Positions 11,981 through 63,000 of a stretch of 64,000 bases of DNA are shown one piece after another. The position numbers and the translations under genes were made by a program. Source of the stretch: an uncultured Chloroflexia bacterium. Lineage in GTDB: Bacteria; Chloroflexota; Limnocylindria; Limnocylindrales; CSP1-4. A model generated the notes under the pieces. That model had not been told where the DNA came from and ran no database searches. It saw only the letters and a list, made by a program, of their open reading frames with translations. Location: positions 96,001 to 160,000 of the forward strand of contig CAVVNQ010000015.1 in assembly GCA_963749705.1 (NCBI GenBank), given 5' to 3'. Position 1 is the stretch's first letter; each line of letters starts with the position of its first letter.

Positions 11981-14900
11981 GTGGAGTTCAGGGTTCTCGG
12001 ACAGCTCGGGATCGTCGACGGTCATCGTCCGATCACACTTGGTTCGCACAAGCAGCGGTCGTTGCTCGCCCTCCTCCTCATCAACCACGGCTCCGTGCTG
12101 TCTGCGGATCGGCTCCTCGACGAGCTGTGGGGTGACGAGGCCTCGGATCGTCAGAACGCACTGTGGGTGCACGTCTCCAACCTGCGGACGGCGCTGGAGC
12201 CGGATCGGGAGGCCAGGTCGGAGGGGTCCATCGTTCGCACCCGAGCGCCCGGGTACATCCTCGACGTCGACGGGGAGCAGATCGACGCGGTTCGGTTCGA
12301 GCACCTGGTCGACGACGGGCGCGCACTGTTGGGCGAGGACCCGGAGGCGGCGTCGGCGACCCTGCGCGGCGCCCTGGAGCTGTGGCGGGGACGGGCCTAC
12401 GAGGAGCTCACCTACGAGGCGTTCGCCCAGGCAGAGATCAGCCGGCTCGACGAGCTGCGTCTCGAAGCCGTCGAGGCTCGTATCGAGGCGGATCTCGCAC
12501 GAGGGCGCGACCGCGAGCTGGTGTCGGAGCTCCAGAGCCTGACCAGGCAGCATCCGTTGCGGGAACGGTTCACCGCCCAGCTCATGCTCGCCCTGTATCG
12601 CGCTGGTCGCCAGTCCGAGGCGCTGCGCGCCTATCAGGAGCTGCGGTCGCGGCTGGGGAGAGAGCTCGGCATCGACCCTTCCCCCGAGGTCAAAGGATCT
12701 CGAGGGCAGGATCCTCACCGAGGATCCCTCGCTGCTGGGCGCGAGTCGCCGATCGGCGGTCGGGGTCGAGCCGGGGCTGGTCATCCGCGGCTACGAGATC
12801 CGGGAGCAGCTGCCGCTGGGCGGCGTGGGCACGGTGTACCGGGCGTTCCAGCCGGCCGTGGGACGGGAGGTGGCGATCAGGGTCATCCCGTCGGCGCTCG
12901 CCGACGATCCCGGATTCATCAGGCGCTTCGAGGGTGACGCCCGGCTCGTCGCCGCACTCGAGCACCCGCACGTCGTGCCGCTCTACGACTTCTGGCGCGA
13001 GCCCGGCGCCGCCTACCTCGTGACCCGGCTCACGCACGGCGGCACGCTGGCCGACGTCGTGGCCCGCAGCGCGCTGCCCGAGGCCGACGCCGCTGGGGTT
13101 CTCGGACAGGTGGCCGGCGCCCTGCGCGCCGCCCACGATGGTGGCGTCGTCCATGGCGCCATCGGGCCTGAGCAGGTGGCGCTCGATGCCGACGGCAACG
13201 CCTATCTGGCCGGTCTCGGGCTGCGGGCGGCGGCTACGGCCGCGCACGCGGTGGGGCCGACCACCGCCCCGGAGGTGATCGACGGATCGCCGCCGACGCC
13301 TGCTTCGGATGTGTATGCGCTGGGCGTGGTGGTCGCCCAATGCCTGACGGGCCTCACCGGGCGCATCGAGCAGGTCGAGGGCGCGTTGCCGCGCTCGGTG
13401 GCCGCGGTGGTCGCATCCGCAACCAACCCCGATCCTGCACGCCGACCGTCGGCCATCGACTTCGCTATGGCCTTCGCAACGGCCACCCAGCCGGGCGCCG
13501 CAACGGCGCCGTTGCCCGACGTCGAGGTGGAGAACCCGTACCGCGGCCTCGCCGCATTCGCCGCCGCGGATGCCGCCGTGTTCCTCGGCCGGCAACGAGT
13601 CGTCGACCGGCTGGTGGCTCGCCTCGGGCAACCGGGGGCGGCGGGGCAGATCATCGCCCTGGTTGGTCCCAGCGGGAGCGGGAAGTCGAGCGTGGTTCAG
13701 GCCGGGCTGCTGCCTGCCCTGGCGGACAACGCCCTCCCCGGCTCCGCACAGTGGTTCGTCACGTCGGCGGTGCCGGGGCGGCAACCGTTCGAGGCACTGG
13801 AGGCGGCATTGCTGCGGGTGGCGATCGATCCGCCGCCAACGCTCTACGAGCAGCTCTCGTCCGGGGAGAACGGGCTGCGCCGGGCGGTGCGCCGGGTCCT
13901 CCCCGATGACGGCTCGCAGCTGCTGCTCGTCGTCGATCAGTTCGAGGAGCTGTTCACGCTGACCGACCCGCAGGAGGCGGCGGCGTTCCTCGATGCCCTG
14001 GCCGGGGCCGTCGCCGACGCCCACAGCAGGGTGCGGGTCGTCGCCACGCTCCGTGCCGACTTCTACGACCGGCCGCTCCAACACCGGCGCTTCGGCGAGC
14101 TGCTGCGCGAGGGAACCGAGGTCATCACCCCGATGTCCCCGGAGGAGCTCGAGCAGGCCATCAGCGGTCCGGCGGAGCCGCTCGGCGTTCACTTCGCACC
14201 TGCCGTCGTCGCCGACATCGTGCACGAGGTCGAGGGCCGCCCAGGCGCCCTGCCGTTGCTCCAGTACGCCCTCACCGAGCTGTTCGAAGCGCGGGCCGGG
14301 TCGATCATCACCTCGGAGACCTATCGCCAGATCGGCGGCGTCACCGGTGCGCTGGCGTTGCGGGCCGAGGCGCTGTTCGCCGAATGCGACGAGCGCGAGC
14401 AGCTGGCCGCCCGGCAGGTGTTCCTCCGCCTCGTCACCCTCGGCGAGGGCGCCCTCGACACGAGGCGGCGGGTGCTGGTCTCCGAGCTCGACGACCTGCC
14501 GCTCCATCCGCTCGCGGTGCGGGCGGTGCTCGATCGGTTCTCCGCCCACCGGCTGCTCACCTTCGACCGGGACCCGGTGACGCGTGGACCGACGGTGGAG
14601 ATCTCCCACGAGGCGCTGCTGACCGAGTGGGACCGGCTGCAGGGATGGATCGACGGCGCCCGCGAGGACGTGCGCAACCAGCGCCGCCTCGCCGACGCCA
14701 TGGGGGAGTGGGCCGGCTCGGGACGACGCGACGACCTGTTGCTCTCCGGCGGCCGGCTCGCCCGCTTCACCGCCTGGGCGGCGGACGCCGATGTCCAGCT
14801 CGCCAGCGGGGAACGGGGATTCCTCGATGCCAGCATCGAGCTCGCCGAACGGGCCGAACGCCTCGAACTGGAGCGTGAGTCGCAACGGGTCGCCGCCCAG

Positions 14901-16706
14901 CGCCAGGCTCGGCAGCGGCTGCGGCTGACGGCGGTCGCCGGCGTGGCCGCGGTGATCGTCGGTGCGCTCGCCGTCGTCGCCTTCCTCCAGCGACAAGCCG
15001 CCCAGGGCTCAGAGCGCCAGGTCACCGCCACCCTGCGGGCGAACGATCTCGCCACGTCGTCACGACTCGTGCTCCGGGACGACGTGCGCCTCGCCCTGCG
15101 CCTGGCGATCGAGTCGGCCGGGGCCACCACCGAGTTCGGGGTGGTCACCCCGGAGGCGATGGATGCCCTCCACTGGGCGGTCCAGGAGGCCAACATCGTG
15201 TACCCGGCCGGCGACACGACGCCGGTCGCCGTCCGTCCCGGGCCGCGCAGCCTCACCGGCGTGTATGCACTGCCACCCAACGAGCTCATCGCGCTCGCCC
15301 AGTCGGGCCCGGTCGGGTCATACCTCGGCGATCAGTGCCCGACCTACCTCGGCACCGAGGAATGTCCGGACCCGCTGCGCAGCTTCCCGGCCGGGTTGTC
15401 GATCGCCGGCGGCGACGAAGCCTATGGGGTGGTGCAACCCAAACCGGGGACCCTCACCGGGGCGAAGGTGGAGCTCGTCTCCGACTTCACGGTGAGCAAC
15501 GAGGACCTGGCATCCGAGCTGAGGTCGCTCGAAGGCCTCACCGGCATCGTCGTGTCACACCGCGCCGCACCCGTGTGGGACGAGCTCAGCTCGCGAAAGG
15601 ACGCCAACGACCCGTTCCCCGATCTGATCATGGGGGGGTATCCCACGCAGCTCGCCGATTGGCGGTCCGACGGGCTGATCGACCTCTCGTCGTACCTTGA
15701 CATGAGCCGGATCCGGTCCGACTTCGGGGCGAACCAGGTGAAGCTGGGCTCCATCGACGGTGGCTACTACATGCTGCCCGTCGCCAGCGACATGAAGGGC
15801 ATGGTCTACTACCCCAAGGCCGCGTTCGAGGCGGCCGGCTACCGCGTCCCGCAGACGTGGGACGAGCTGCTGGCGCTGTCGCGGCAGATGGTCGCCGACG
15901 GGCGCACGCCGTGGTGCTTCGCCTGGGAGGACGGCGGGGGTTCGGGCTGGCCGGGCACCGATCTGCTGGAGACCCTCGTGCTCCGCGTGGGGGGGACCGA
16001 CGCCTACGACGCGTGGATCGCCCACACGATCCCGTTCGACGCCCCGGTCATCCGCCAGGCCGGCCAGATGGCATCGACCCTGCTCCTCAGCGACGGGTTC
16101 GTGCGCGGCGGAGCGGGGGCCATCAGCAGCACGCCCGTCTTCGACAGCCTCGCTCCACTCCTGGAGGACGAGCCCGGGTGCTGGATGGTGCTCCAGTCGA
16201 GCCTCATGCTGACGACCCGACCCGACGTCAACAGCGTGGCCGGCAGGAGCCTCGATTGGTTCCCGTTCCCGCCGATCGAGCGGGGCTCGGACGTCATGCC
16301 GCAGTACGGGGGCTCCAGCTACGTGCTGGCATTCAACGACCGTCCCGAGGTGCGTGCGTTCATCTCGCACGTCGCCTCGCCACAGTGGGGCCGGGTGTGG
16401 GCTGCGACGGCGACCACGTTCGTCTCGCTGAACGACCGCTTCGACGTCCGGCAGTACGGAGGGGCGGTCTCGGCGGCGCCGGCCGGGGTCCTCCGGTCGA
16501 TCGGCGAGGCCGCGCGGGAGGCGATCGCTGCCGGGGTGTGGCGCTACGACGCCTCCGACCTCATGCCGGGCGCGATCGGGCTGTACGACGACAACGGCAA
16601 CCCCGGTGCGTTCTTCACCGGCATGCTCGATGTCGTCGACGGCCGCAGGACGATGGACCAGATGCTCACCGACGTCGAGGCGAAGTGGCAGTCGCTCGGC
16701 GGGTGA
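11981..16706 (+). CDS. SARP(wHTH+BTAD)-pseudokinase-nSTAND NTPase-TM-extracellular solute-binding fusion (~1574 aa), frameshifted at ~12693
   Basis: BTAD motifs (ALELWRG, HPLRER, LMLALYRAGRQSEAL). An extra A in CAAAGGAT breaks the frame. Downstream: kinase-like fold, NPYRGL, GPSGSGKSS, VVDQFEELF, a TM helix, and a sugar-SBP domain (PQTWDELLALS, GWPGTD). Confidence 0.85.
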
Positions 16707-39508: not shown

Positions 39509-40516
39509 CTAGCGATCGGTGTCCCCGCTGCGGACCACGGCGATGGCGTTCTCGAGCCGCAGCTTCGCGATCGTCAGGTACTTCGCGAGATTGCTCCGGT
39601 CGATGGGGCCGATCGCGTCGAGGACCTCCGGGTTGCGGAGCATGTCCAGGAAGTCCTCGACCGCCTCGTTGAGCTGCTGCTTGGCGGTGACGAGCGAGTC
39701 ATCGCGCATGGGCGTCGCGGGCCGCGTTCCGTGTCCTGCCCAGTCACCCGCCTCCGCGTCCGGGATGTCGGTGGCCGCGACATCCGGCTGGTCCGTCGTC
39801 TCGGCCGGCAGCCTGGCCGGCCGGCCCTCGATCCGCTCACGGAGCTTGACCAGGGACAGCTCGTTGCGGGCGACCTGGTCGGCCAGCCGGCGGCGCTTCT
39901 TGGGGTCCTGGACCTTCATCAGCTCGTAGGCGTGGGACAGCGTGTCCTTGCGCAAAGACACGAGCTCGCGGACCTCGGGCGGTGCGTCGGCCAGCCGGAG
40001 CCGGTTCTCGAGATATCCCTTGTCCTTGCCCAGCTTCTCGGCGAGTCTGCGGATGCTGTATCCGTGGTCCCGGATCATGCGGTCGTACATCGCCGCCTCG
40101 TCGAGCGGCGAGATGTCCTCGCGCTGGAGGTTCTCGATGATCGAGATCTCGAGCGCCGTATCGTCGTCGATGTCCTCGACCAGCGCGGGGATCGTCGGGC
40201 GCCCTGCGATCTTCGAGGCTCGCCATCGGCGTTCGCCGGCGATCAGCTGGTAGCGCCCGTCGTCGAGCGGGCGAACGAGGATCGGCTGGAGCACACCATG
40301 CTCGCGGATCGACGCGGCCAGCTCCTCGAGCGTCGCCTCGTCGAACGCGAGGCGCGGCTGCTCCGGATTGGAATCGATGTGATCCGTCTCGATCACCTTC
40401 ACGCCGGTCGACCTGCGGTTCATGTCCGGCGACAGGAGGCTGACGATCGCGGGCGGAAGCTCCCGATCCTCGGACAGTCGGCGGGCGGCGGCGGCGCGGA
40501 AATCAGGCCTGGCCAA
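39509..40516 (-). CDS. parB: ParB/Spo0J partition protein
   Basis: [22 protein letters not shown] (CTP-binding), IENLQRED and an HTH. Confidence 0.95.
39941..39962. other. Putative parS-like palindrome, copy 1 (inside parB)
   Basis: CGTGTCCTTGCGCAAAGACACG, 22 bp with one mismatch. Confidence 0.7.
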
Positions 40517-41279
40517 GTTCGATCACCTCCCGGGCGAGTTCGCGGTAGCTGCGAGCGGCTTCGGACGATCCGGCGTACGACGTGATGGGACGCCCGGCAA
40601 GCGGCGCCTCGCCCAGCTTCACGGTGTTGCGGATGATGGTGGTGAACACGTGGTGGTCACCCACCACTCGCAGCTCGTCGAGCATGTCCCGCGCCAGGTT
40701 GGTCCGGCCGTCGTAGAACGTCGGCAGCAGGCCCAGGATCCGGAGGTCCCGGTTGAGCTTCAGCCGGATCGCGTTGATGACCTTGACCAGGTTGTTGAGT
40801 CCCTTCATCGCGTAGAACTGCGTCTGGACGGGAATGATCACGCTGTCGGCGGCTGCCAGGCCATTGACCGTCAGGAGACCGAGGTTGGGCGGACAGTCGA
40901 TCAGCACGTAGTCGTACGGGTCGACCGCGTCGCGCATCGCCTCGCGCAGGATCTGCTCACGGCCCAACGCGGTGAACAGTTCGCCCTCGGTGCTGGCGAG
41001 GTCGATGTGCGCCGGTGCGACATCGATGCCGGCCGTCTCGGTCGCGAGGATCACCTCGGGGAGCGTCGATCGCCCGTCGGCGAGGACATCGGCCATGGAT
41101 CGCTGGACGGTGTTGAGGTTGACGCCCAGCCCCGCGGTGAGGTTCGCCTGCGGATCCATGTCGATCAGGAGCACTCGGCAGCCCTCCTCGGCCAGCGCTC
41201 CCGCAAGGTTGATCGCGGTCGTTGTCTTGCCAACGCCACCCTTCTGGTTGGCGATCGCGATCACGTGCGACAAGGACAT
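40503..41279 (-). CDS. parA: ParA/Soj ATPase
   Basis: [19 protein letters not shown] and IDCPP motifs. The start may be the TTG at 41273. Confidence 0.96.
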
Positions 41280-41371
41280 CACCTCGAAATGGAACAGCTG
41301 CGGCGCGGGGCCGGATTGCAGCGGGGGTGGTGCGAATGCTACCGCGAGGGCGTCGCCCTGCGGACGCGAGG

Positions 41372-41413
41372 TTGTCCACACAATGACCCAGTTGTGCACC
41401 GTTCTGTGGATAT
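41372..41413. promoter_or_regulatory. Cluster of three DnaA-box-like 9-mers upstream of parA
   Basis: TTGTCCACA at 41372, TTGTGCACC at 41392 and TGTGGATAT at 41405 (reverse orientation). Confidence 0.6.
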
Positions 41414-41581
41414 CCGTGGCCCGCGCATGCGCCACGGGCGCGGGTCGAAATGCACCTGTAACACCTCGTTGATCCAGCGCGAACAATGATGGGCCCATCG
41501 ACGGCAATGCCCGTGACGCGGGTCGACGCTGCCCAGGCCGCGAGCCGCGCGTGCCCGAGGCCTATGATTGGGGCGTCCCGC

Positions 41582-41599
41582 CGTCTTTGCGCAAGGACG
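41582..41599. other. Putative parS-like palindrome, copy 2
   Basis: CGTCTTTGCGCAAGGACG, downstream of TATGAT (41563). Confidence 0.7.
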
Positions 41600-41630
41600 C
41601 GCGTTCACGCCATCGGAGGAGTCCAGCGAC

Positions 41631-43184
41631 GTGCCCAACAACGCGGATCGGATCGCCCGGCTCGAGCGGATGCGCGCGGAGGCGCTCCAGGGTGGCGGCC
41701 CGGTGCGGATCGAGCGACAGCATGCCTGGGGAAAGCTGACGGCCCGGGAGCGGCTCGACCTGTTGCTCGACGCCGGCTCGTTCGTCGAGATGGATGCGTT
41801 CGTGATGCCGCGCGCCACGGCGACGGGTCTCGATCGCCAGCAGTTTCTGGGCGATGGGGTGGTCACCGGTCACGGCACGATCGACGGACGACTGGTGTTC
41901 GTGTTCAGCCAGGACTTCACGGTGTTCGGTGGGTCGCTGTCGGAGGCGTACGCCGAGAAGATCTGCAAGGTCATGGATCTCGCGATGAAGGTGGGCGCAC
42001 CGGTCATCGGGCTCAACGACTCCGGCGGTGCGAGGATCCAGGAGGGCGTCGCGTCGCTCGGTGGCTACGCCGAGATCTTCCTGCGCAACGTGATGGCATC
42101 CGGGGTGGTGCCCCAGATCTCCGTCATCCTAGGCCCGTGCGCGGGCGGTGCCGTCTACTCGCCCGCGATGACCGACTTCACCGTGATGGTGGAGGGGACG
42201 AGCTACATGTTCGTGACCGGTCCCAACGTGGTCAAGGCGGTCACCCACGAAGAGGTCGACTCCGAGGCGCTGGGCGGCGCCGCGGTGCACACGGGTCGCA
42301 GCGGGGTCGCGCACCTCGCGGCACGCGACGAGGCGGAGGCGATGGACTACGCCCGCCGAGTCCTCGCATATCTGCCGCAGAACAACCTGTCGGATCCGCC
42401 GCGCGCGGAAGCGAGCGATCCGCGCAACCGCATGGACCCGGAGCTCGATGCGGTGGTCCCGGACGAGCCCTCGAGGCCGTACGACATGCACGAGGTCCTG
42501 CGCCGTGTCGTCGACGACGGTGACTTCCTCGAGATCCAGCCGGCATGGGCGGGCAACATCATCGTCGGGTTCGCGCGGCTGGGCGGCCGGCCGGCCGGGA
42601 TCGTTGCGCAGCAGCCCGCCGTCCTTGCCGGCGCCCTGGACATCGACGCGTCGAACAAGGCCGCGCAATTCGTCCGGACGTGTGATGCGTTCAACGTGCC
42701 GCTGGTCACGTTCGTCGACGTGCCGGGGTTCCTGCCGGGCGTCGGCCAGGAGCACAACGGGATCATCAAGCACGGAGCCAAGCTGCTGTACGCGTACTGC
42801 GAGGCGACGGTCCCCAAGGTGACCGTCATCACGCGCAAGGCGTACGGCGGCGCCTACGACGTCATGAGCAGCAAGCACATCCGCGGCGACATGAACTTCG
42901 CGTGGCCGACGGCGGAGATCGCGGTGATGGGCGCCGAGGGCGCGGTCAACATCATCTTCAAGGACTCGATCGCGGGAGCGGACGATCCCGCGGCCGAGCG
43001 CAGTCGGCTGGTGGCGGAGTATGAGGACGAGTTCTCCAACCCGTACATCGCCGCGGGTCGCGGGTACATTGACGAGGTGATCCTTCCGCACGAGACGCGA
43101 CCGCGCCTGATCCGGGCGCTCGAGGTCCTCGCCGACAAGCGCGACACCAACCCGAAGAAGAAGCATGGCAACATCCCGCTCTGA
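41631..43184 (+). CDS. pccB: Acyl(propionyl)-CoA carboxylase beta subunit
   Basis: [33 protein letters not shown] and KKHGNIPL motifs. Confidence 0.93.
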
Positions 43185-43196
43185 CGACGACGCGGT

Positions 43197-43212
43197 GTCG
43201 TTGCGCAAAGAC
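43197..43212. other. Putative parS-like palindrome, copy 3 (intergenic)
   Basis: GTCGTTGCGCAAAGAC. Confidence 0.65.
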
Positions 43213-43232
43213 GCCCGCGCCGGGTCCGCCCG

Positions 43233-44828
43233 ATGACCGGCCGCGAGACGCCGTTTCGTCGCGTCCTGATCGCCAACCGCGGCGAGATCGCGGTCCGCAT
43301 CATCCGGGCCTGCCACGAGATGGGGATCGAGGCTGTCGCGGTGTACAGCGACGCCGACACGACGGCGGCCCACGTCCGTCTCGCCGACGTCGCGGTCCGG
43401 ATCGGGCCACCCGCGCCGACGGAGAGCTACCTCCGGATCGATGCCGTGGTCCAGGCGGCGATCGACACGGGCGCCGAGGCGATCCATCCCGGGTACGGCT
43501 TCCTCGCCGAGCGCGCGGCGTTCGCGCGCGCCGTCGAGGACGCGGGCCTCGTGTTCGTGGGCCCCGCGTCGGCCACCATCGAGGCCCTGGGCGACAAGCT
43601 CCACGCCCGACGGCTGGCGGCCAGGATCGATGTGCCGTCAGTGCCCGGGACCCTCGAGCCCGCTCCCGTCGATCGCCCGGACCAGGTCGCGGACATCGTC
43701 GCCACCGCGCGGACCATCGGCTTTCCGCTGCTGGTCAAGGCGGCCGCCGGCGGGGGAGGGCGGGGGATGCGTCGGGTCCTTCATGCCGACGATCTTGCCG
43801 CGGCGCTCGTCTCCGGGTCGCGCGAGGCTGCATCCGCGTTCGGTGACGGGTCCGTCTACCTGGAGCGCGAGATCCTCCCGGCGCGACATGTCGAGGTTCA
43901 GCTGCTCGGCGACGCCCACGGCAACGTCGTCGCGCTGGGAGAGCGCGACTGCTCGCTCCAGCGGCGTCACCAGAAGCTCGTGGAGGAGGCCCCCGCGCCC
44001 GGCCTGACCCCGGATCAGCGCCGGGAGCTGCACGAGCGCGCCGTGCGCCTGGCCCGCGCGGCCGACCTGCGCAACGCTGCCACCTGCGAGTTCCTGTATG
44101 ACACCGACGGTCGGTTCTGGTTCCTCGAGGTCAACACGCGGCTCCAGGTGGAGCACGGCGTGACCGAGCTCGTCACCGGCGTCGACATCGTTCGCGAGCA
44201 GCTCTGGATCGCCGCGGGCCGGCCCCTGTCGCCCGAGGTGGTTGCGGCCGGCGAGCGCGCGGCAGCGCCATCGAGCCACGCGATCGAGGTCCGGATCGCG
44301 GCCGAGGATCCGTCACGAGCGTTCGCCCCAACGCCCGGCCGGATCGGGCGGTGGGTGATGCCTGCCGGGCCCGGGATCCGGGTCGACACGGGGATCGAGG
44401 CTGACGACCTCGTGCCCCCGGACTACGACAACCTGATCGCCAAGCTGATGGTCCACGCGAACGATCGTGACGCGGCGATCGACCGGCTTGGACGGGCGCT
44501 GGACGAGACGGAGATCGGTGGCGTGCAGACGACGCTGCCCTTCCACCGGTTCGTCGCGCACAGCGACGCCTTCCGCGACGGCGAGCTGTCGACGGGTTGG
44601 GTGGACGGGCACTGGGACGGCGAGGCGGCCCGCGCGCAGGCAGCTCGAGTCGCGCTGCGCGCCGCGGGCCTGGCCGCGATCGCGGGTGACCTGGATGGCG
44701 TGGCACCGGTTGCAGCATCCCGCGCCCCGCTTGGTGCGGATGGCGCGCTCGCCGCCGAGTCTGCTGACGGCGCACGGGCGTGGCGTCGGTCGGGCCGCGC
44801 GCATGGGGTCGATCGATGGCCGAGCTGA
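43233..44828 (+). CDS. accC: Biotin carboxylase subunit
   Basis: IANRGEIA, HPGYGFLAE, GGGGRGM and FLEVNTRLQVEH motifs. Confidence 0.92.
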   Translation: MTGRETPFRRVLIANRGEIAVRIIRACHEMGIEAVAVYSDADTTAAHVRLADVAVRIGPPAPTESYLRIDAVVQAAIDTGAEAIHPGYGFLAERAAFARAVEDAGLVFVGPASATIEALGDKLHARRLAARIDVPSVPGTLEPAPVDRPDQVADIVATARTIGFPLLVKAAAGGGGRGMRRVLHADDLAAALVSGSREAASAFGDGSVYLEREILPARHVEVQLLGDAHGNVVALGERDCSLQRRHQKLVEEAPAPGLTPDQRRELHERAVRLARAADLRNAATCEFLYDTDGRFWFLEVNTRLQVEHGVTELVTGVDIVREQLWIAAGRPLSPEVVAAGERAAAPSSHAIEVRIAAEDPSRAFAPTPGRIGRWVMPAGPGIRVDTGIEADDLVPPDYDNLIAKLMVHANDRDAAIDRLGRALDETEIGGVQTTLPFHRFVAHSDAFRDGELSTGWVDGHWDGEAARAQAARVALRAAGLAAIAGDLDGVAPVAASRAPLGADGALAAESADGARAWRRSGRAHGVDRWPS

Positions 44829-45544
44829 CCACGGCTGTGCCCACCGATGGCCATGACCGGAGCGAGGACGCCGCGGCGGTGGCTGCGCCCGTGGCCGACG
44901 ATCCCCGGGCGGTCCGCGTCCGGCTCGCACCTGGATCGCAGCTCGGCGACGAGCCGGTGCTCCGCGTCGCGCCGGCGGCCGAGGTCCTCCAGCCGTCGAA
45001 CCCGACCGTCGGCGTCGGTCCGCTCGGTGGGGCCGCAGCTCCGGCCGCCGAGCCGGAGGGCGGGACTGTCCGTGCGCAAAGACACCCGCTGCTGGACGGC
45101 CAGGCCACTGATGCCGCGCTCCAGACCCTCGGGCGGGGACGGCTCATCCTCGACGAGGCCGGTCGTCGCACCCGCGTGGTGCTCGAGCCATACCGGGCCG
45201 CGCCGGGCCGCGTCGTGGTCCGGGAGGTCCTGGTCGACGGCTTCCGGTTCGAGGTGGAGCTGGAGCCCGAGCGGATCGCCGCCCTCCGCGAGCGGGCGAC
45301 CAAGGGCCGCGAGTCGAGCGCCCACCGCGGGCCGCTCGAGGTCCGGGCGATCATCCCGGGCAAGGTCGTGGCCGTGTCCGTGGGCCCCGGCGACGAGGTC
45401 ACGGCGGGCCAGCAGCTGCTGGTGGTCGAGGCGATGAAGATGCAGAACGAGCTGCGGGCGCCGCGGGATGGCACGATCGACCGGGTCGCGGTTGCGCAGG
45501 GCGTCAACATCGAGGTCGGCGACCTGCTGATGGTCATCAGCTGA
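44816..45544 (+). CDS. Biotin carboxyl carrier protein
   Basis: C-terminal biotinyl domain with EAMKM. Confidence 0.9.
45067..45084. other. Putative parS-like palindrome, copy 4 (inside the biotin carrier gene)
   Basis: TGTCCGTGCGCAAAGACA. Confidence 0.6.
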
Positions 45545-45555
45545 CGGAGGTATCG

Positions 45556-47226
45556 GTGAGCGACGAGGCAACGGCGGATCCGGCGGTCGAGCGCTGGCGT
45601 GCCACGACGCGCGCCCGCGCGCTGGCCGCGTCGCCGGAGCACGGGCGGTTCGCGACGACCTCGGAGATCCCGATCGCCGACGTCTACACCCCCGCCGACG
45701 TCGATGACCTGGATCCCGCCCGGGACCTGGGCCTGCCGGGCGAGTACCCGTTCACGCGCGGCGTCCAGCCGACCATGTACCGATCGCGGCTGTGGACGAT
45801 GCGCCAGTACGCCGGGTTCGCGACGGCGGCCGAGACCAACGAGCGGTTCCGGTACCTGCTGTCGCAGGGGCAGACGGGGCTGTCCGTCGCGTTCGACCTG
45901 CCAACCCAGATGGGCTACGACGCCGATGCCCCGGAGGCCGAGGGCGAGGTCGGCCGGGTGGGCGTCCCGGTCTCGTCGCTCGCCGACATGGAGGTCCTGT
46001 TCGCCGGCATCCCGTTGGGCGAGGTCAGCACCTCGATGACGATCAATGCCACGGCTCCCATCCTGCTCGCGCTGTACGTCGCGGCGGCGGAGAAGCAGGG
46101 GGTCGCGCGGGCGGCCGTGTCGGGGACCACCCAGAACGACATCCTCAAGGAGTACATCGCCCGCGGCACCTGGATCTACCCGCCTCGGGTATCGATGCGG
46201 CTGGTCACCGACGTGTTCGAGTTCGCCACCCGCGAACTGCCCCGCTGGAACACGATCAGCATCTCCGGGTACCACATGCGCGAGGCCGGGGCGACCGCCG
46301 CCCAGGAGCTGGCGTTCACGCTTGCCGACGGCATCGCCTACGTCGAGGCGGCGCTGTCCCGCGGGCTCGCCGTGGACGACGTCGCGCCCCGGCTGTCGTT
46401 CTTCTTCGCAGCGTGGTCGGAGCTGTTCGAGGAGGTCGCGAAGTTCCGGGCCGCGCGCCGGATGTGGGCGCGGATCATGAAGGAGCGGTTCGGCGCATCG
46501 AACGCTCGTTCGATGATGTGCCGGTTCCATACGCAGACGGCCGGGTCCTCGCTGACCGCCCAGTCGATCGACAACAACGTGGTCCGCACCACGCTCCAGG
46601 CCCTCGCCGCCGTCCTCGGGGGAACCCAGAGCCTGCACACGAACTCGCGCGACGAGGCGCTCGCGCTGCCGACGGCCGAGGCCGCGCGGCTCGCGCTCCG
46701 GACGCAGCAGATCATCGCCCACGAGGCGGGCGTGACCGAGACCCCGGACCCGCTGGCGGGGTCGTACTTCGTGGAGTCGCTGACCAGCGAGCTCGAGGCG
46801 GCCGCGTCCGCCTACCTCGACGAGATCGACGCGATGGGCGGCACGCTCTCGGCGATCGAGGGCGGCTTCCAGCAGCGGCAGATCCAGGAGTCGGCCTACC
46901 GGGTCCAGCGGGAGATCGAGCGTGGCGACCGCATCGTGGTCGGCGTCAACCGGTACCGGGACGAGGACACGCCGACGCGACCGGCGCTCCAGCGGATCGA
47001 CCCGGACGGCGAGCGGCGCCAGGTTGCCGGGATCCGCGCGGTTCGCGACGGGCGCGATCCCGCTGCCTGGGACCGGGCCATGCGCCGCCTCGAGGACGAG
47101 GCCCGCGGGGAGGCCAACCTGCTGCCCGCGATCATCGAGGCCGTCGCGGCCTACGCCACCGTGGGCGAGATCGCCGACCGCCTGCGGACGACCTGGGGCG
47201 TCCATCGCGAGCTGATCACGGTCTGA
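45556..47226 (+). CDS. Methylmalonyl-CoA mutase, substrate-binding (large) subunit
   Basis: [26 protein letters not shown] and ISISGYH motifs; no B12-binding domain. Confidence 0.93.
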
Positions 47227-59031: not shown

Positions 59032-59460
59032 GTGTTCACCGGCGAGTACCGGCACGCGGTCGACGACAAGGGACGGATCGCCGTCCCGTCGCGATTCCGC
59101 GCGCAGCTCGACGGTGGGGCCGTGGTCGCAAGGTGGCTCGACACCTGTCTTGCGATCTTCCCCAGGAGCGCATGGGAGGAGCTGGCGACCAAAGTCGGCA
59201 GCCTGCCCATGACCGACCCCAACGCCCGGCTGCTGCAGCGACAGCTGTTCGCGGGTGCCTTCGAGACGGAGCTCGACCGCCAGGGTCGGGTGCTCGTTCC
59301 GCAGGGGCTGCGCTCGTTCGCCGGCCTCGAGGCCGACGCGATGGTGCTCGGATCCCGGGATCACGCCGAGATCTGGGCGCCGGACCGATGGGCGGATTAC
59401 AGCCGCAGCCTCGAGGACCCGGACGCGTTCGCGCAGGCGATCGCCGGGCTGGGGATCTGA
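59032..59460 (+). CDS. mraZ: Division/cell wall cluster repressor MraZ
   Basis: FTGEYRHAVDDKGRIAVP, DRQGRVLVP and EIW motifs. Confidence 0.96.
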   Translation: MFTGEYRHAVDDKGRIAVPSRFRAQLDGGAVVARWLDTCLAIFPRSAWEELATKVGSLPMTDPNARLLQRQLFAGAFETELDRQGRVLVPQGLRSFAGLEADAMVLGSRDHAEIWAPDRWADYSRSLEDPDAFAQAIAGLGI

Positions 59461-59521
59461 CGTCGCACCAAATGCGCTTCCAGGGTCCGCTCGGGATCCG
59501 CAATCGACACGTGGAGGAGTG

Positions 59522-60466
59522 ATGGAGGAAGGGCACTTGCCGGTCATGCCGGACGAGGTCCTCGGGACGCTCGCCCCCAGGCCCGGCAGCCTCCAGATCG
59601 ACGCGACGGTCGGCGGCGGTGGGCACACCGAGCGGATCCTGGAGGCCGCCAGCCCCGACGGCCGGGTCCTCGGGCTCGATGCCGACGGGGCGGCGATCGA
59701 GCGCGTCCGGCTGCGACTCGCCCGCTTCGGCGATCGGCTGGTGCTCCGGCGCGCGAACTTCCGCGAGCTTGCGACGATCGCCCCCGAGGCCGGGTTCGGC
59801 GCCGTCGACGGCATGCTGTTCGACCTCGGATTGTCGTCGTTCCAGCTGGCCGACCGCGAGCGTGGCTTCGGCTTCCGCGCCGGCGGCCCCCTCGACATGC
59901 GGTTCGATGCGACGCGCGGGGTCCCGGCGGCGGAGCTGCTCGCGACCCTCGATGCGGACGAGCTCGCCGCCCTGTTCCGTCGCTACGGCGAGGAGCCTGC
60001 GGCGTGGAAGATCGCCAGGGCGATCGTGGCGGCGAGGGCGACCGCGCCGATCCGGACCGCGGAAGAGCTGGCCGGGCTGATCGAGCGCGTCTCGCCCCCA
60101 AACCCACGCCAGCGCCGGCGGACCCATCCCGCCACGCGCACGTTCCAGGCGCTGCGGATCGCGGTCAACGAGGAGCTGGACGCGCTGAGCGACGGCCTCG
60201 CCGCGGCGGTGGACCTGCTGCGCCCCGGCGGACGGCTGGTCGTCCTGTCCTATCACTCGCTCGAGGACAGGATCGTCAAGCGCGCGTTCAACGCCGAGCG
60301 ACGGGGCTGCATCTGCCCGCCCCAGGCCCCGGTGTGCGTCTGCGGCCGGGCGCCGCGGCTGCGCCTGGTGACACGGCCGTCCATGACCCCGACCGATGTC
60401 GAGATCGATGCCAACCCACGATCCCGCAGCGCGCGCCTCCGGGCCGCCGAGCGGCTGGCCGCCTGA
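59522..60466 (+). CDS. rsmH: 16S rRNA m4C1402 methyltransferase
   Basis: HLPVM, DATVGGGGH, DLGLSSFQL, SYHSLEDR and NPRSRSARLR motifs. Confidence 0.97.
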   Translation: MEEGHLPVMPDEVLGTLAPRPGSLQIDATVGGGGHTERILEAASPDGRVLGLDADGAAIERVRLRLARFGDRLVLRRANFRELATIAPEAGFGAVDGMLFDLGLSSFQLADRERGFGFRAGGPLDMRFDATRGVPAAELLATLDADELAALFRRYGEEPAAWKIARAIVAARATAPIRTAEELAGLIERVSPPNPRQRRRTHPATRTFQALRIAVNEELDALSDGLAAAVDLLRPGGRLVVLSYHSLEDRIVKRAFNAERRGCICPPQAPVCVCGRAPRLRLVTRPSMTPTDVEIDANPRSRSARLRAAERLAA

Positions 60467-60570
60467 GCGCGAGGAGGATCGATCGAGGCAGACCACCGAC
60501 GCCGCCCCTCGCGCCCCGTCGATCCCGCCGGCCCACGTGGCCGCGGCCCCGCCCACGGAGGAGGAGTCCC

Positions 60571-60768
60571 GTGAGCAAGCGCCACCAGTCCAATCGCCGC
60601 AAGTCCTACGGACGTCGCCAGCACGAGCTCGCCGAGCGGCGGGTCCATCGTGACGACCCCGAGGCGCTCGACACCCAGATGAGCGAGACCGTGCCGCCCA
60701 CCATGGGCGACCGGTTCATCGCGCTCGATGCCGGCGTGCCGCTGCTGCTCTACACCATGGCCGATTGA
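60571..60768 (+). CDS. Small hypothetical protein (65 aa, basic N-terminus)
   Basis: GGAGGAGGAG RBS before the GTG; stop abuts the ftsL start. Confidence 0.6.
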   Translation: MSKRHQSNRRKSYGRRQHELAERRVHRDDPEALDTQMSETVPPTMGDRFIALDAGVPLLLYTMAD

Positions 60769-60770
60769 CG

Positions 60771-61154
60771 ATGGCCGTCTACCAGGGAGCCCGGCAGCGA
60801 ACCGTCGTCCTGCCGCGCCGTCCGCGCGTCGCGGTCGGAGCCCCCGCCCTGCCGCGGCGCCGGGTTCGAGCGGCGGTCAGGGCGCGTCGCGGGCCGTCGC
60901 GGATGGCGATCCTGCTGGGCGCGATCGTGATCGCGTTTGCCGCGGCGTTCTTCTCCCTGTCACAGGACATCCGGGTGTCCGCGACCGGGTACGAGGTCGA
61001 CCGGCTGACCAGCGAGCACGACCGCTACGATGCACAGGCCGCCGACCTGCTCAACGAGCTCAACCGGCTGGGCAAGGCTCCGGCCATCCGCAAGCTTGCG
61101 ATCCAGGCCGGGCTTGGCCCGCTTCCCGAGCCGCTCGTCATCCCCGCGCGCTGA
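60771..61154 (+). CDS. ftsL: Cell division protein FtsL-like
   Basis: Basic N-terminus, single TM, coiled coil ending IRKLAIQAGL; lies before ftsI. Confidence 0.7.
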   Translation: MAVYQGARQRTVVLPRRPRVAVGAPALPRRRVRAAVRARRGPSRMAILLGAIVIAFAAAFFSLSQDIRVSATGYEVDRLTSEHDRYDAQAADLLNELNRLGKAPAIRKLAIQAGLGPLPEPLVIPAR

Positions 61155-61170
61155 CGCGGACGACCGCCAG

Positions 61171-63000
61171 ATGCTCGGCCGGACCGATTCCCGAACTCGC
61201 GCCGTCGTCCTGCTGATCGCCTTCGTGGTGATCGCGGGCAGCGTCGGGGTGCGACTTGCCTACTGGCAGGTAGTCCGGCGGGACGAGCTTGCGACCCTGG
61301 CCCAGCAGCAGACGTCGCTGCGATACGAGATCCCAGCCGAGCGCGGGGCGATCTACGACCGGACCGGGACGGTCGTGCTGGCCACGACCGTGAGCCGCGA
61401 CCTCCTGGCCGCCAACCCCGTCATGCTGACGCTCAAGCGACGCGCGGAGGTGGCGCACAACCTGATCCAGGTGCTCGGCCTGGACGGTGCCGCGGCGGCG
61501 AACCTGTTCCAGCGCATGACCTCGGACAGCAAGTACACGGTGCTGGCGAGGGAGATCGAGCCCGCGATGTCGGACCGGATCCGTGCCATGAGCAAGGGCG
61601 ACAAGCCGGCGCTGTCGGGCCTCGTCCTGACGCCCGAGCCGATGCGGGTCTACCCCCAGCCCGGCGGTGGTCCCAACACGAGCCTGGCCGCGCACGTCCT
61701 GGGGTTCGTGAACCGTGAGGGGCAGGGGCAGTACGGGATCGAGCAGTACTACCAGGATGACCTCGCCGGCATGCCGCGGGTCGTGGCCGCGCAGCACGAC
61801 GCCTACGGCAACACGATTCCCGACACCTCGGTCGTGCTCGACTCCGGCGTGCCCGGGCAGGACCTGACGCTGACCATCGATGCCACCCTCCAGGTCGCGG
61901 TCGAGCAGGAGCTGCTGGCTGCCTGGATCGCCGATCGAGCCAAGCGAGCATCGGCCGTGGTCATGGATCCCTACACGGGCGAGGTGTACGCGTACGCGAG
62001 CTACCCGTCCTACGACGCGAACGACTACAGCGCGATCGCGGCCGAGGATCCGGGACGGTTCATCGACCCGATCGTGTCCACGGTCTATGAGCCCGGCAGC
62101 GTGTTCAAGATGCTGACGGCGATCGCGGCGCTGGGGGATGGCCACGTGACCATCAACACCAAGTTCAAGGACACCGGCACCCTGCGGCTGGATGGCGGCA
62201 AGACCCAGGTCGACGACGCCGACCACAAGCCGATGGGCTGGCTCACGTTCCAGGACGCGGTGGCCTACTCGCGCAATGTCGTGCTGGCCAGGGTCGGGCT
62301 CGGGCTGGGCAAGACGACGGCCGCCGCATCGCAGGTCCTGTACGACACCTGGCGGTCGATGGGCTTCGGGTCCACCACGGGCATCGACGTCGCCAACGAG
62401 GTCGGGGGCCTGGTCAACGACCCGGCCGCCAGGGTATGGCGCCAGATCGACCTCGCCAACGGGGCGTTCGGGCAGGGCGTCGCCGTGACGCCGATCCAGC
62501 TCGCCCAGGCCTATGCGGCGATGGTCAACGGCGGGACGCTCGTCCGGCCTCGCGTCGTCAAGGCGATCGGCCAGACGGTGACCGAGCCGGTCAGCGAAGG
62601 CCGCGTGATCTCACCCCAGCTGTCGACCACCCTCACCAACCTGATGCGCCACGTCGTGACCTCGGTCAACTTCTATCGCACCCGGACGGTCATCCCCGGC
62701 TTCGATGTGGGCGGCAAGACCGGCACCGCCCAGATCTGGGACTCGGCGAAGGGCGCCTGGAAGGTCAACATGTTCAACTACAGCTTCATCGGCTACATCG
62801 GTCGGGAGCAGGGGCACCCGGACCTCGTGATTGCGGTCCGGATCGAGGAGGGCACGCCCACGGTGGTCCGCCTCGGGCATCTCGAGATGCCGGTCATGTC
62901 GTTCGAGCTGTTCCGGAGGATCGCGCACGACGCGATCACCACCCCGGATCTCGTTCCCGAGCGCACCTCCACACCGGTCACCGCCGCGGTCAACCCGTGA
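61171..63000 (+). CDS. ftsI: Class B penicillin-binding protein (FtsI-like)
   Basis: RGAIYDRTG, YEPGSVFK (SxxK), SRN and KTGTAQ motifs. Confidence 0.9.
   Translation: MLGRTDSRTRAVVLLIAFVVIAGSVGVRLAYWQVVRRDELATLAQQQTSLRYEIPAERGAIYDRTGTVVLATTVSRDLLAANPVMLTLKRRAEVAHNLIQVLGLDGAAAANLFQRMTSDSKYTVLAREIEPAMSDRIRAMSKGDKPALSGLVLTPEPMRVYPQPGGGPNTSLAAHVLGFVNREGQGQYGIEQYYQDDLAGMPRVVAAQHDAYGNTIPDTSVVLDSGVPGQDLTLTIDATLQVAVEQELLAAWIADRAKRASAVVMDPYTGEVYAYASYPSYDANDYSAIAAEDPGRFIDPIVSTVYEPGSVFKMLTAIAALGDGHVTINTKFKDTGTLRLDGGKTQVDDADHKPMGWLTFQDAVAYSRNVVLARVGLGLGKTTAAASQVLYDTWRSMGFGSTTGIDVANEVGGLVNDPAARVWRQIDLANGAFGQGVAVTPIQLAQAYAAMVNGGTLVRPRVVKAIGQTVTEPVSEGRVISPQLSTTLTNLMRHVVTSVNFYRTRTVIPGFDVGGKTGTAQIWDSAKGAWKVNMFNYSFIGYIGREQGHPDLVIAVRIEEGTPTVVRLGHLEMPVMSFELFRRIAHDAITTPDLVPERTSTPVTAAVNP

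Follow-up and report, generated by a model that had tools for sequence, protein, structure and literature searches.

We consider it likely that four palindromes in a 64,000-nucleotide stretch of an uncultured soil Chloroflexota genome (G000:C15:96001-160000; hereafter, the window) are the loading sites of a second, orthogonal ParABS-type system on a chromosome that also carries a canonical one. The palindromes surround a parAB gene pair, and throughout this report ParA2, ParB2, and parS2 denote the window pair and its palindrome, and ParA1 and ParB1 denote a pair on contig C3 of the same assembly (22 contigs, 3,595,848 bp, 71.6% GC, 88% complete). Chromosomal parS is regarded as nearly universal in sequence and as origin-proximal, and secondary specificities are tied to secondary replicons. 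The chromosome described here probably carries two separate centromere-like systems, and the novelty is best read as lying in a predicted new parS and a putatively retargeted ParB on the main chromosome of a whole class. The class of ParB2 carriers is called Limnocylindria by source names, and organisms of this type are known mostly from metagenomes. The class sample comprised 151 genomes, with close homologues bearing the source names Chloroflexi, Chloroflexota, and "Candidatus Limnocylindrales"; the window's own family is designated f1, and the other families of the class are f4, f3, f5, and f2. Loci were compared over ParB2 ±10 kb from 40 genomes (16 f1, 14 f4, 6 f3, 1 f5, and 3 f2).

The consensus of the motif, yGTCyTTGCGCAArGACr, is an 18-bp palindrome with four copies in the window. 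The original prediction had placed 16-bp palindromes at positions 39944, 41583, 43197, and 45068; all four coordinates were confirmed, as was the extension of the first to a 22-bp palindrome (39941-39962), which has one mismatched pair. Scanning the window with up to 3 mismatches returned just these four sites, which count as 8 strand matches compared with 0.42 expected (standard deviation, 0.71), and none of 100 shuffles reached 8; the earlier statement that the 64 kb holds no further copy, which had been made by eye, therefore stands at this threshold as well. When the whole genome (3.6 Mb) was scanned against the perfect palindrome with up to 2 mismatches, again only these four sites were found, all within 5.1 kb, and one 3-mismatch match lay on contig C8. 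Core and half-site words showed no enrichment genome-wide. The motif is thus clustered at this locus and not scattered over the genome.

A tblastn search of the window pair against its own genome identified another pair on contig C3, where ParB1 shares 43% identity with ParB2 over 169 amino acids (aa) and ParA1 shares 46% with ParA2 over 260 aa. Two near-canonical parS sites, with one mismatch each, lie 140 to 280 bp upstream of parA1 at C3:241168 and C3:241305, and dnaA lies at C3:188.5 kb, about 51 kb from ParAB1/parS. No canonical parS (TGTTTCACGTGAAACA) was found in the window, the near-canonical sites in the genome occur only on C3 by parA1, and none was found at the f3, f5, and f2 ParB2 loci (0 of 10). 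ParB1 has the canonical recognition helix GKARATVANTLRLL followed by GHGR, the N-terminal sequence ALGRGLDALI, and a canonical-looking C terminus. ParB2 lacks all three, having neither the canonical helix nor an LGRGL-type N-terminal motif nor a ParB1-type C terminus. The original prediction had remarked on the lack of dnaA in the window, had called for a search for a second parAB with canonical parS, and had left open whether the window motif is a lineage-specific replacement of parS or a second, orthogonal centromere. Both dnaA and the canonical pair were located on C3, and because canonical parAB and parS are present elsewhere in the same genome, the replacement option is excluded. The alternative of a second centromere gained support from the canonical pair near dnaA and from the presence of both systems on one chromosome in relatives. 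The description of the window genes as a chromosomal parAB was correct as to their location, and they are better read as a second, paralogous pair that is not origin-proximal.

Single-contig assemblies place the two systems relative to each other. In G006, a genome of the same genus (3,624,741 bp), dnaA is at 1,072,196, canonical parS sites are at 1,027,488 and 1,027,660, and ParB1 is at 1,028,680; ParB2 is at 3,365,627, 36.7% of the circle from dnaA, with four motif sites between 3,361,110 and 3,366,199. In G145, of family f4 (2,086,592 bp), dnaA is at 274,952, ParB1 is at 253,389, and ParB2 is at 1,076,178, 38.4% of the circle from dnaA. ParB2 on contig C2 of G069 lies 34.5% of the molecule from dnaA. 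Both systems share one contig with dnaA in G006, G145, G069, G001, and G097, and overall the second locus lies about 35 to 38% of the circle from dnaA and not near the origin. Gene-strand bias and GC skew were sampled in G145 in 54 windows of about 20 kb, covering about half of the genome, and both switch near 0 to 100 kb and near 1,300 to 1,400 kb. The replichores of this genome look unequal, at about 1.3 Mb and about 0.75 Mb. The assignment of origin and terminus in G145 is tentative because the GC skew, which is weak, runs opposite to the gene-strand bias and because some 200 kb separate dnaA and parS1 from the nearer switch. The gene-strand bias on the window's contig keeps a positive sign between 80 and 517 kb and does not switch at the locus, and in the window's own genome the GC skew was too weak to place an origin or a terminus. 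G006 also carries two identical 310-aa open reading frames (ORFs), at C1:1270622 and 3344547, with weak Bac_DnaA matches (4e-8); these are probably AAA+ proteins encoded by an insertion sequence, and the parS2 cluster is about 17 kb away from one of them.

ParB2 has the sequence features of a CTPase-type ParB whose DNA-reading residues are noncanonical. The pocket motifs for cytidine triphosphate (CTP), GERRWRA and ENLQRED, are kept in all five families; among the orthologues listed, L039 alone reads GERRLRA. All 40 fetched orthologues share the recognition helix GKDKGY[LVI]ENRLRL without variation. PMC7383237 names four positions, 173, 179, 184, and 201, that reprogram ParB to Noc specificity, and gives the position equivalences used here; there, Caulobacter ParB has R/T/A/G and Noc has Q/K/K/R at these positions, with an R204 contact conserved in both. 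By alignment to Bacillus subtilis Noc, ParB2 has K/R/D/S at the four positions and Y at position 204. PMC7383237 also states that R173 and G201 (Caulobacter numbering) are absolutely conserved in ParB orthologues; ParB1 has R and G at these positions, and ParB2 has K and S. An AlphaFold2 (AF2) model of ParB2, built from a 37-sequence alignment (mean predicted local distance difference test score, 79), is confident over residues 39 to 230, which match ParB, Noc, and KorB structures; its template modeling score against the Caulobacter ParB-parS complex 6t1f is 0.76 when normalized to the target. Residues 233 to 266 are disordered in the model. Since the helix is invariant, the specificity positions are altered, and the CTP-pocket motifs are kept, ParB2 is the likely reader of the motif, and its binding to the palindrome is likely on these sequence grounds.

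The closest solved sequences to ParB2 are Noc proteins (1.4e-40), a KorB Pfam match falls below the cutoff (20 versus 22.3 bits), and plasmid ParBs in PLSDB reach at most 43% identity, the best being on a Chloroflexota plasmid. A 74-aa query from the ParB2 C-terminal domain matched 35 of 301 phylum genomes, including the window's, all of them f1, f2, or f4, a query that may miss f3 and f5. A scan of contigs for ParB2-like loci returned, among the matches listed, six best matches that were all ParB2 with the KDKGY helix, five of them with the same motif; the others were generic ParBs. A wider metagenomic group of ParB-like proteins (P0155, P0159, P0163, P0164, P0169, P0174, P0186, P0232, P0243, and P0268) shares a related noncanonical helix of the form GK[GS]KGY..RLRL ... 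RPDTLxH.

Across the class, a ParB2 match (E ≤ 1e-20) was obtained in 150 of 151 genomes, and 144 of 151 had at least two ParB matches; this tally includes six unpublished genomes (G151, G176, G165, G122, G159, and G142), of which the other claims made here are independent. Best-match identity to ParB2 was 58 to 100% in f1, 54 to 58% in f4, 51 to 63% in f3 and f5 (where the matches are partly shorter), and 47 to 54% in f2, whose genomes are small (1.0 to 1.4 Mb). Within the genus of the window, all 36 genomes had at least one motif match, among them G023, which is 68% complete. In the 17 of these genomes whose matches were itemized, 15 had a cluster of 2 to 6 sites spanning no more than about 9 kb of a single contig; the other two were G002, where one site was good, and G023. 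Several same-genus genomes (for example, G007:C113, G004:C454, G002:C277, G029:C3, and G023:C238) contain, once per genome and away from the cluster, a separate conserved sequence, GTCGTTCCGCAACGAC, which inflates counts at 1 mismatch. Every parAB2 locus in f1 (16 of 16) and f4 (14 of 14) has 2 to 4 motif sites, even though ParB2 identity drops to 51 to 55% at the f4 loci. The palindrome within parB2, at the position encoding VSLRKDT, is found in 16 of 16 f1 loci and 10 of 14 f4 loci, the L040 copy having 3 mismatches; it is lost in the f4 loci L045, L049, L070, and L071, three of which are from genomes of genus g21. Of the 30 f1 and f4 loci, all but L036 have a site upstream of parA2 (29 of 30). 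Loci that carry pccB, the propionyl-coenzyme A (CoA) carboxylase carboxyltransferase gene, have sites at the junction of pccB with the biotin carboxylase gene and beyond, and the position equivalent to site 3 is filled in most such f1 and f4 loci. In one metagenome-assembled genome (L140), two perfect palindromes lie 125 bp apart, at 2107 and 2232, upstream of the parAB2 operon; the ParB2 of this genome has TIRKDT, and no intragenic motif site was found in its parB2 at up to 2 mismatches.

These neighbors raise the question of whether the motif serves the metabolic genes and not parAB. In this explanation an unrelated transcription factor controls the propionyl-CoA carboxylase (pcc) and methylmalonyl-CoA mutase (mcm) genes from the palindrome, its operator, which lies by parAB only by chance. 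In favor of it, pcc genes contain or are bounded by three of the four sites, and both f1 and f4 preserve the motif in synteny with pcc-mcm. However, in four f1 loci of genus g5 the mutase gene adjoins parA2, pccB and the biotin carboxylase gene are missing, and exactly the site upstream of parA2 and the one inside parB2 are kept. In f3, the motif occurs at a helicase/major facilitator superfamily (MFS) transporter locus without pcc or mcm genes. One of the four window sites lies about 560 nucleotides (nt) inside parB2, where it is kept against codon bias, and the window locus has no other conserved DNA-binding gene. Because the motif is kept without pccB and is present at the f3 helicase locus, it is not a pcc operator, and we regard this explanation as largely refuted and of very small probability. 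The concern that the motif would follow pcc genes in relatives and not parB did not hold, since the g5 loci keep their sites without pccB and the f3 locus has neither pcc nor parAB. The expectation that sites cluster by the parB orthologue in relatives was borne out at all 30 f1 and f4 loci and failed in f3, f5, and f2, where no site lies within ±10 kb. The motif is a cis-element whose reader is conserved throughout the class.

The intragenic site of parB2 is under selection at the DNA level. This copy (site 1) uses TCT TTG, and site 4, read in the frame of 44780-45544, uses ACT, CGT, CAA, and AGA. In the window's genome TCT supplies 1.0% of Ser codons, TTG 2.6% of Leu, ACT 0.9% of Thr, CGT 6.1% of Arg, CAA 2.8% of Gln, and AGA 0.5% of Arg, according to a crude table of 953 long ORFs that were filtered for GC3 above 0.85 and are thus biased to GC-ending codons. 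The earlier remark that these copies impose rare codons holds against this table. The Lys codon of the intragenic site is AAA in 22 of 31 orthologues (the 30 f1 and f4 loci plus the window), compared with 1.6% of Lys codons genome-wide, a figure that is biased low because the ORF set was filtered on GC3. AAG is used in 7 of 31, namely the window and three same-genus loci in which the site is kept and three loci without the palindrome, and Arg AGG is used in 2 of 31 (L044 and L071). Among the four f4 loci that have lost the palindrome, three have AAG and one has AGG.

A symmetrized profile was built from 96 distinct sites at 36 loci; its 16 core columns are biased, as sites were chosen at up to 2 mismatches to the consensus, and its flanks are unbiased. 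From the outside to the center it reads G-T-C-(T 75% / C 21%)-(T 85%)-T-G-(C 90%). Immediately before the 16-mer, 70% of sites have T and 30% have C, and none has A or G, which sets a minimum length of 18 bp for the element. Complementarity ends beyond ±2 bp, so that the palindrome stops at 18 to 20 bp, which fits a site for a protein dimer better than a long hairpin. The least probable of the explanations that we weighed is that the palindrome is a hairpin or cruciform structure, for example a terminator or REP-like (repetitive extragenic palindromic) element. Although the element is palindromic and two copies are intergenic between codirectional genes, the stem would be AT-rich and short in a 72% GC genome, the 96 sites show no complementarity farther out, no T-run follows the palindrome, copies occur in coding regions, and the genome holds just four.

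The architecture of parS2 resembles that of known parS sites. PMC5450999 describes chromosomal and Bsr parS as palindromes of 16 bp whose arm is T-rich and whose 6-bp core contains two C, two G, one A, and one T around a central CG, and the consensus GTCTTTGCGCAAAGAC has the architecture given there. The parS of Burkholderia cenocepacia chromosome II, which the original prediction had cited as TGCGCA-centered, appears as gTTTATGCGCATAAAc in a table of the review PMC7022226. The 9-nt half TGTCTTTGC, counted from the outer T, resembles the canonical 8-nt half TGTTTCAC plus one extra base; we record this as an observation only.

Four known arrangements invite comparison. With canonical ParABS (Spo0J/Soj), the window system shares a ParB_N CTPase fold with a helix-turn-helix (HTH), an adjacent Soj-type ParA2, and central-CG palindromes in multiple copies around parAB, one of them inside parB. 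It differs in that parS2 agrees with canonical parS at just 3 of 8 half-site positions (in the 16-bp register); in the K173, S201, and Y204 residues of ParB2, its missing LGRGL-type motif, and its all-helical C-terminal hairpin; and in a locus 35 to 38% of the circle from dnaA that shares its chromosome with a canonical system. With the Bsr ParABS of B. cenocepacia chromosome II it shares the T-rich arm and the TGCGCA core around a central CG, the sites being identical at 12 of 16 positions, and, as proposed here for parS2, a second, non-cross-reacting specificity beside canonical parS in one cell. Bsr systems, however, are on separate replicons by their own origins, whereas parS2 is on the main chromosome of a Chloroflexota host, and the Burkholderia and Paraburkholderia plasmid ParBs in PLSDB are about 30% identical to ParB2, a comparison that covered plasmid-borne proteins. 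Noc is likewise a ParB paralogue changed at the same few HTH positions that coexists with canonical ParB on one chromosome; unlike ParB2, which has an adjacent ParA2 and one tight site cluster, Noc has no ParA, its binding sites are scattered, and its specificity residues are Q/K/K/R and not K/R/D/S. Lastly, fused multipartite genomes (Vibrio and Agrobacterium; natural or experimental) carry two partition systems on one molecule. They resemble the present case in having two orthogonal partition systems on a single chromosome and differ in being strain-level fusions with a second origin or repABC, whereas the Limnocylindria arrangement is class-wide and the surroundings of the locus showed no second initiator. 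The literature searched contained no published description of this ParB2/parS2 system and nothing relevant for TTGCGCAA together with ParB.

The remaining families depart from this layout. The neighbor of parAB2 in f3 and f5 is a tRNA gene, and the ±10 kb around it lack the motif as well as any pcc or mcm gene. Instead, a locus of f3 that encodes an M17 peptidase, a UvrD-PD-(D/E)XK helicase, and an MFS transporter holds a cluster of sites that resemble the motif, including its y...r flanks (GTCnnTGCGCAnnGAC). At least one site (up to 1 mismatch) was found at 23 of 28 such loci (27 genomes, 6 genera), with 39 hits in 157 kb compared with 4 for a reversed control, and the genome-wide background of the f3 motif is 9 to 28 matches per 2.1 to 3.4 Mb. 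The orthologues of this helicase locus in the window's genome are elsewhere and have no site. The f3 sites (L074, L075, and L216-L243) lie in and after the helicase-nuclease gene, and one just past its 3' end recurs in six genera. A de novo search for another shared palindrome within ±10 kb of parB2 in f3, f5, and f2 found none; the same method recovered the motif in f4. In f3 (L050-L053, L072, and L073) and f5 (L054), parA2 is divergent from the tRNA gene, and a conserved, short GCGTGC...CTTCC...GCACGC-like inverted repeat that may be a leader or operator lies about 100 to 150 bp upstream. One f2 genome, G042, has a single degenerate palindrome between parA2 and the mutase gene, which is suggestive only.

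The link between ParB2 and ParA2 can be followed through the same families. parA2 adjoins parB2 in 37 of 37 fetched f1, f4, f3, and f5 loci and in 2 of 5 f2 genomes (G041 and G042); the other three f2 genomes (G037, G039, and G040) have ParA1 only. The loci of these five f2 genomes are L055-L057, L132, and L133. The ParB2 N terminus carries the peptide A-R/K-P-x-F-R-x4-R-L ... I-V/I-S-L-L in G041 and G042, and in G037, G039, and G040 it is replaced by an unrelated start. This pattern fits a ParA2-contact peptide, as judged from its distribution, and the loss of the peptide and of parA2 in f2 is one evolutionary event, not three. The f2 genomes without parA2 keep parB2 beside the methylmalonyl-CoA mutase gene.

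On this basis, the following mechanism can be proposed. ParB2 dimers would recognize the 18-bp palindrome through an HTH whose base-reading residues are unlike those of canonical ParB. ParB2 would bind CTP at the GERRWRA/ENLQRED pocket, close to a clamp, and slide over the locus of about 5 kb. The adjacent ParA2 ATPase would act on the resulting partition complex through the ParB2-specific N-terminal peptide. In this way parS2 would mark a mid-replichore locus, with canonical ParA1/ParB1/parS remaining by the origin region. A ParA2-driven positioning role is somewhat less likely than the binding of ParB2 to the motif.

Several observations weigh against a second ParABS-type system loaded at these palindromes. 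Nearly all chromosomal parS are origin-proximal, and this locus is far from the origin; in G145, ParB2 lies inside the longer replichore, about 250 to 300 kb before the far switch, and we found no precedent for a segregation role at a mid-replichore position. The C-terminal domain of ParB2 is noncanonical, being modeled by AF2 over residues 272 to 330 as a confident all-helical hairpin with no Pfam match, unlike the ParB1-type C terminus. The association of motif and parAB2 also has gaps. The sole match in G023 is a recurrent 1-mismatch sequence that is found on other contigs of several genomes, with no cluster. At the f3 parAB2 loci the f3 motif is absent (0 of 6 at up to 1 mismatch), and the f3 site cluster is tens of kilobases away, 44 to 55 kb on the same contig in G186, G081, and G064. 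In f5 only one good site was found. In f2 there was no site near parB2 (0 of 3 loci) or at helicase loci (0 of 22), despite the unchanged recognition helix. Finally, pccB is bounded by sites 2 and 3, which may affect transcription, and G037, G039, and G040 keep ParB2 without ParA2. This retention implies that some ParB2 function is independent of ParA2.

The main rival takes up several of these points. In this explanation, ParB2 binds the motif and acts as a Noc- or KorB-like CTP switch, that is, a silencer, a regulator, or an organizer such as a loader of the structural maintenance of chromosomes (SMC) complex, and not as a ParA-driven centromere. It would account for the distance of the locus from the origin, for sites at the pccB promoter region and gene boundary, and for the three f2 genomes with ParB2 alone, and it agrees with the alteration of ParB2 at the four ParB-to-Noc specificity positions and with Noc proteins being its closest solved sequences. 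On the other hand, ParA2 is adjacent in all 37 f1, f4, f3, and f5 loci and part of f2, and the N-terminal peptide is lost only where ParA2 is lost. Moreover, the sites are clustered and Noc sites are scattered, the residues are K/R/D/S and not Q/K/K/R, and the KorB match stays under its cutoff. The neighbors also vary by family, being pcc/mcm in some and a helicase with an MFS transporter in another, and such differences in the flanking genes argue against a dedicated single-pathway regulator. We judge a CTP switch of this kind to be unlikely.

The likeness to secondary replicons suggests a different objection, namely that a second ParABS-type system is present only as a fossil of an ancient fusion of the chromosome with a secondary replicon, with little or no present function. 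The site is Bsr-like (the same 12 of 16 positions as in B. cenocepacia chromosome II parS), the locus is not near the origin, and ParB2 is equally far from ParB1 and from the best plasmid ParB (43% each). A relic without function is nevertheless very unlikely, given that nearly all 151 class genomes, the streamlined ones of 1.0 to 1.4 Mb among them, have intact copies of the two genes, that the recognition helix is invariant, and that the intragenic site is held against codon bias; nor was a replication-initiator gene seen in the window or a local gene-strand switch on C15. An ancient fusion origin is compatible with a functioning second ParABS-type system, and it is the claim of no function alone that competes with it. 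A bolder version of the reading as a second ParABS-type system, which we regard as possible and rather doubtful, is that Limnocylindria are bicentric, with both systems actively positioning different chromosomal domains. The arrangement may in that case be the legacy of a chromosome-chromid fusion, the second centromere would be mobile (at the parAB2-pcc locus in two families and at the helicase locus 44 to 55 kb away in a third), and ParB2 would keep a ParA-independent role in streamlined genomes.

The features of the locus are collected in Table 1.

Table 1. Positions of the parS2 sites and of the genes around them, in window coordinates
Feature	Coordinates	Strand	Remarks
parS2 site 1	39944..39959		GTCCTTGCGCAAAGAC; inside parB2 (minus strand), codons for VSLRKDT, ~560 nt into the gene
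parS2 site 2	41583..41598		Reverse complement of site 1; divergent parA2/pccB gap; ends 33 bp before the pccB GTG
parS2 site 3	43197..43212		48-bp gap, pccB to biotin carboxylase gene
parS2 site 4	45068..45083		Most degenerate copy, 2 mismatches to perfect palindrome; inside ORF 44780-45544
parB2	39509..40516	-	335 aa from TTG start; Pfam ParB_N 1.8e-34, HTH_ParB 4.5e-18
parA2	40503..41279	-	Soj/ParA-type Walker ATPase; Pfam AAA_31 9.5e-63, CbiA 1.7e-28; KGGVGKT
pccB-like carboxyltransferase	41631..43184	+	Pfam Carboxyl_trans 1.9e-200; sites 2 and 3 at its two ends
Biotin carboxylase	43233..44828	+	Pfam CPSase_L_D2, Biotin_carb_N, Biotin_carb_C
Biotin carboxyl carrier ORF	44780..45544	+	Start uncertain; Pfam Biotin_lipoyl 1.5e-17 at residues 194-253 (C-terminal); holds site 4
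Methylmalonyl-CoA mutase	45556..47226	+	Pfam MM_CoA_mutase 2.6e-223

parA2 lies just upstream of parB2 in the same operon; its likely start is the ATG at 41279, and the open frame continues to 41507. The part of the biotin carrier ORF that hosts site 4 is its poorly conserved N-terminal region. In lineages without pccB at the locus, the mutase gene directly adjoins parA2 or parB2. The window as a whole is core DNA, with a C-terminal fragment of dnaG, rpoD, the pcc and mcm genes, an epimerase gene, sucC, icd, sdhAB, mraW, and ftsI; no replication-initiator gene was seen in it. A division and cell wall cluster starts at 59255-63000 (mraW, then ftsI), about 14 to 18 kb downstream of the last parS2 site, which may be coincidence. 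Elsewhere in the window, 12825-16706 on the plus strand is a 1,293-aa ORF that combines a protein kinase domain, an nSTAND1 NTPase, and a solute-binding-protein domain.

If our interpretation is correct, Limnocylindria would be an exception to the rule of one nearly universal, origin-proximal chromosomal parS, with two specificities on one chromosome, class-wide, and the second far from the origin. This raises the question of what role a second ParA-driven centromere, or a ParB loading zone, would have in mid-replichore. The class offers natural experiments that bear on it, in that the sites are relocated in one family, ParA2 and the N-terminal peptide are lost together in streamlined genomes, and the helix is invariant while the flanking residues vary. 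ParB2 also provides a clean test case for specificity, as it differs exactly at the known ParB/Noc switch positions, and if the predicted binding is true, ParB2/parS2 would be an additional orthogonal pair for labeling DNA loci.

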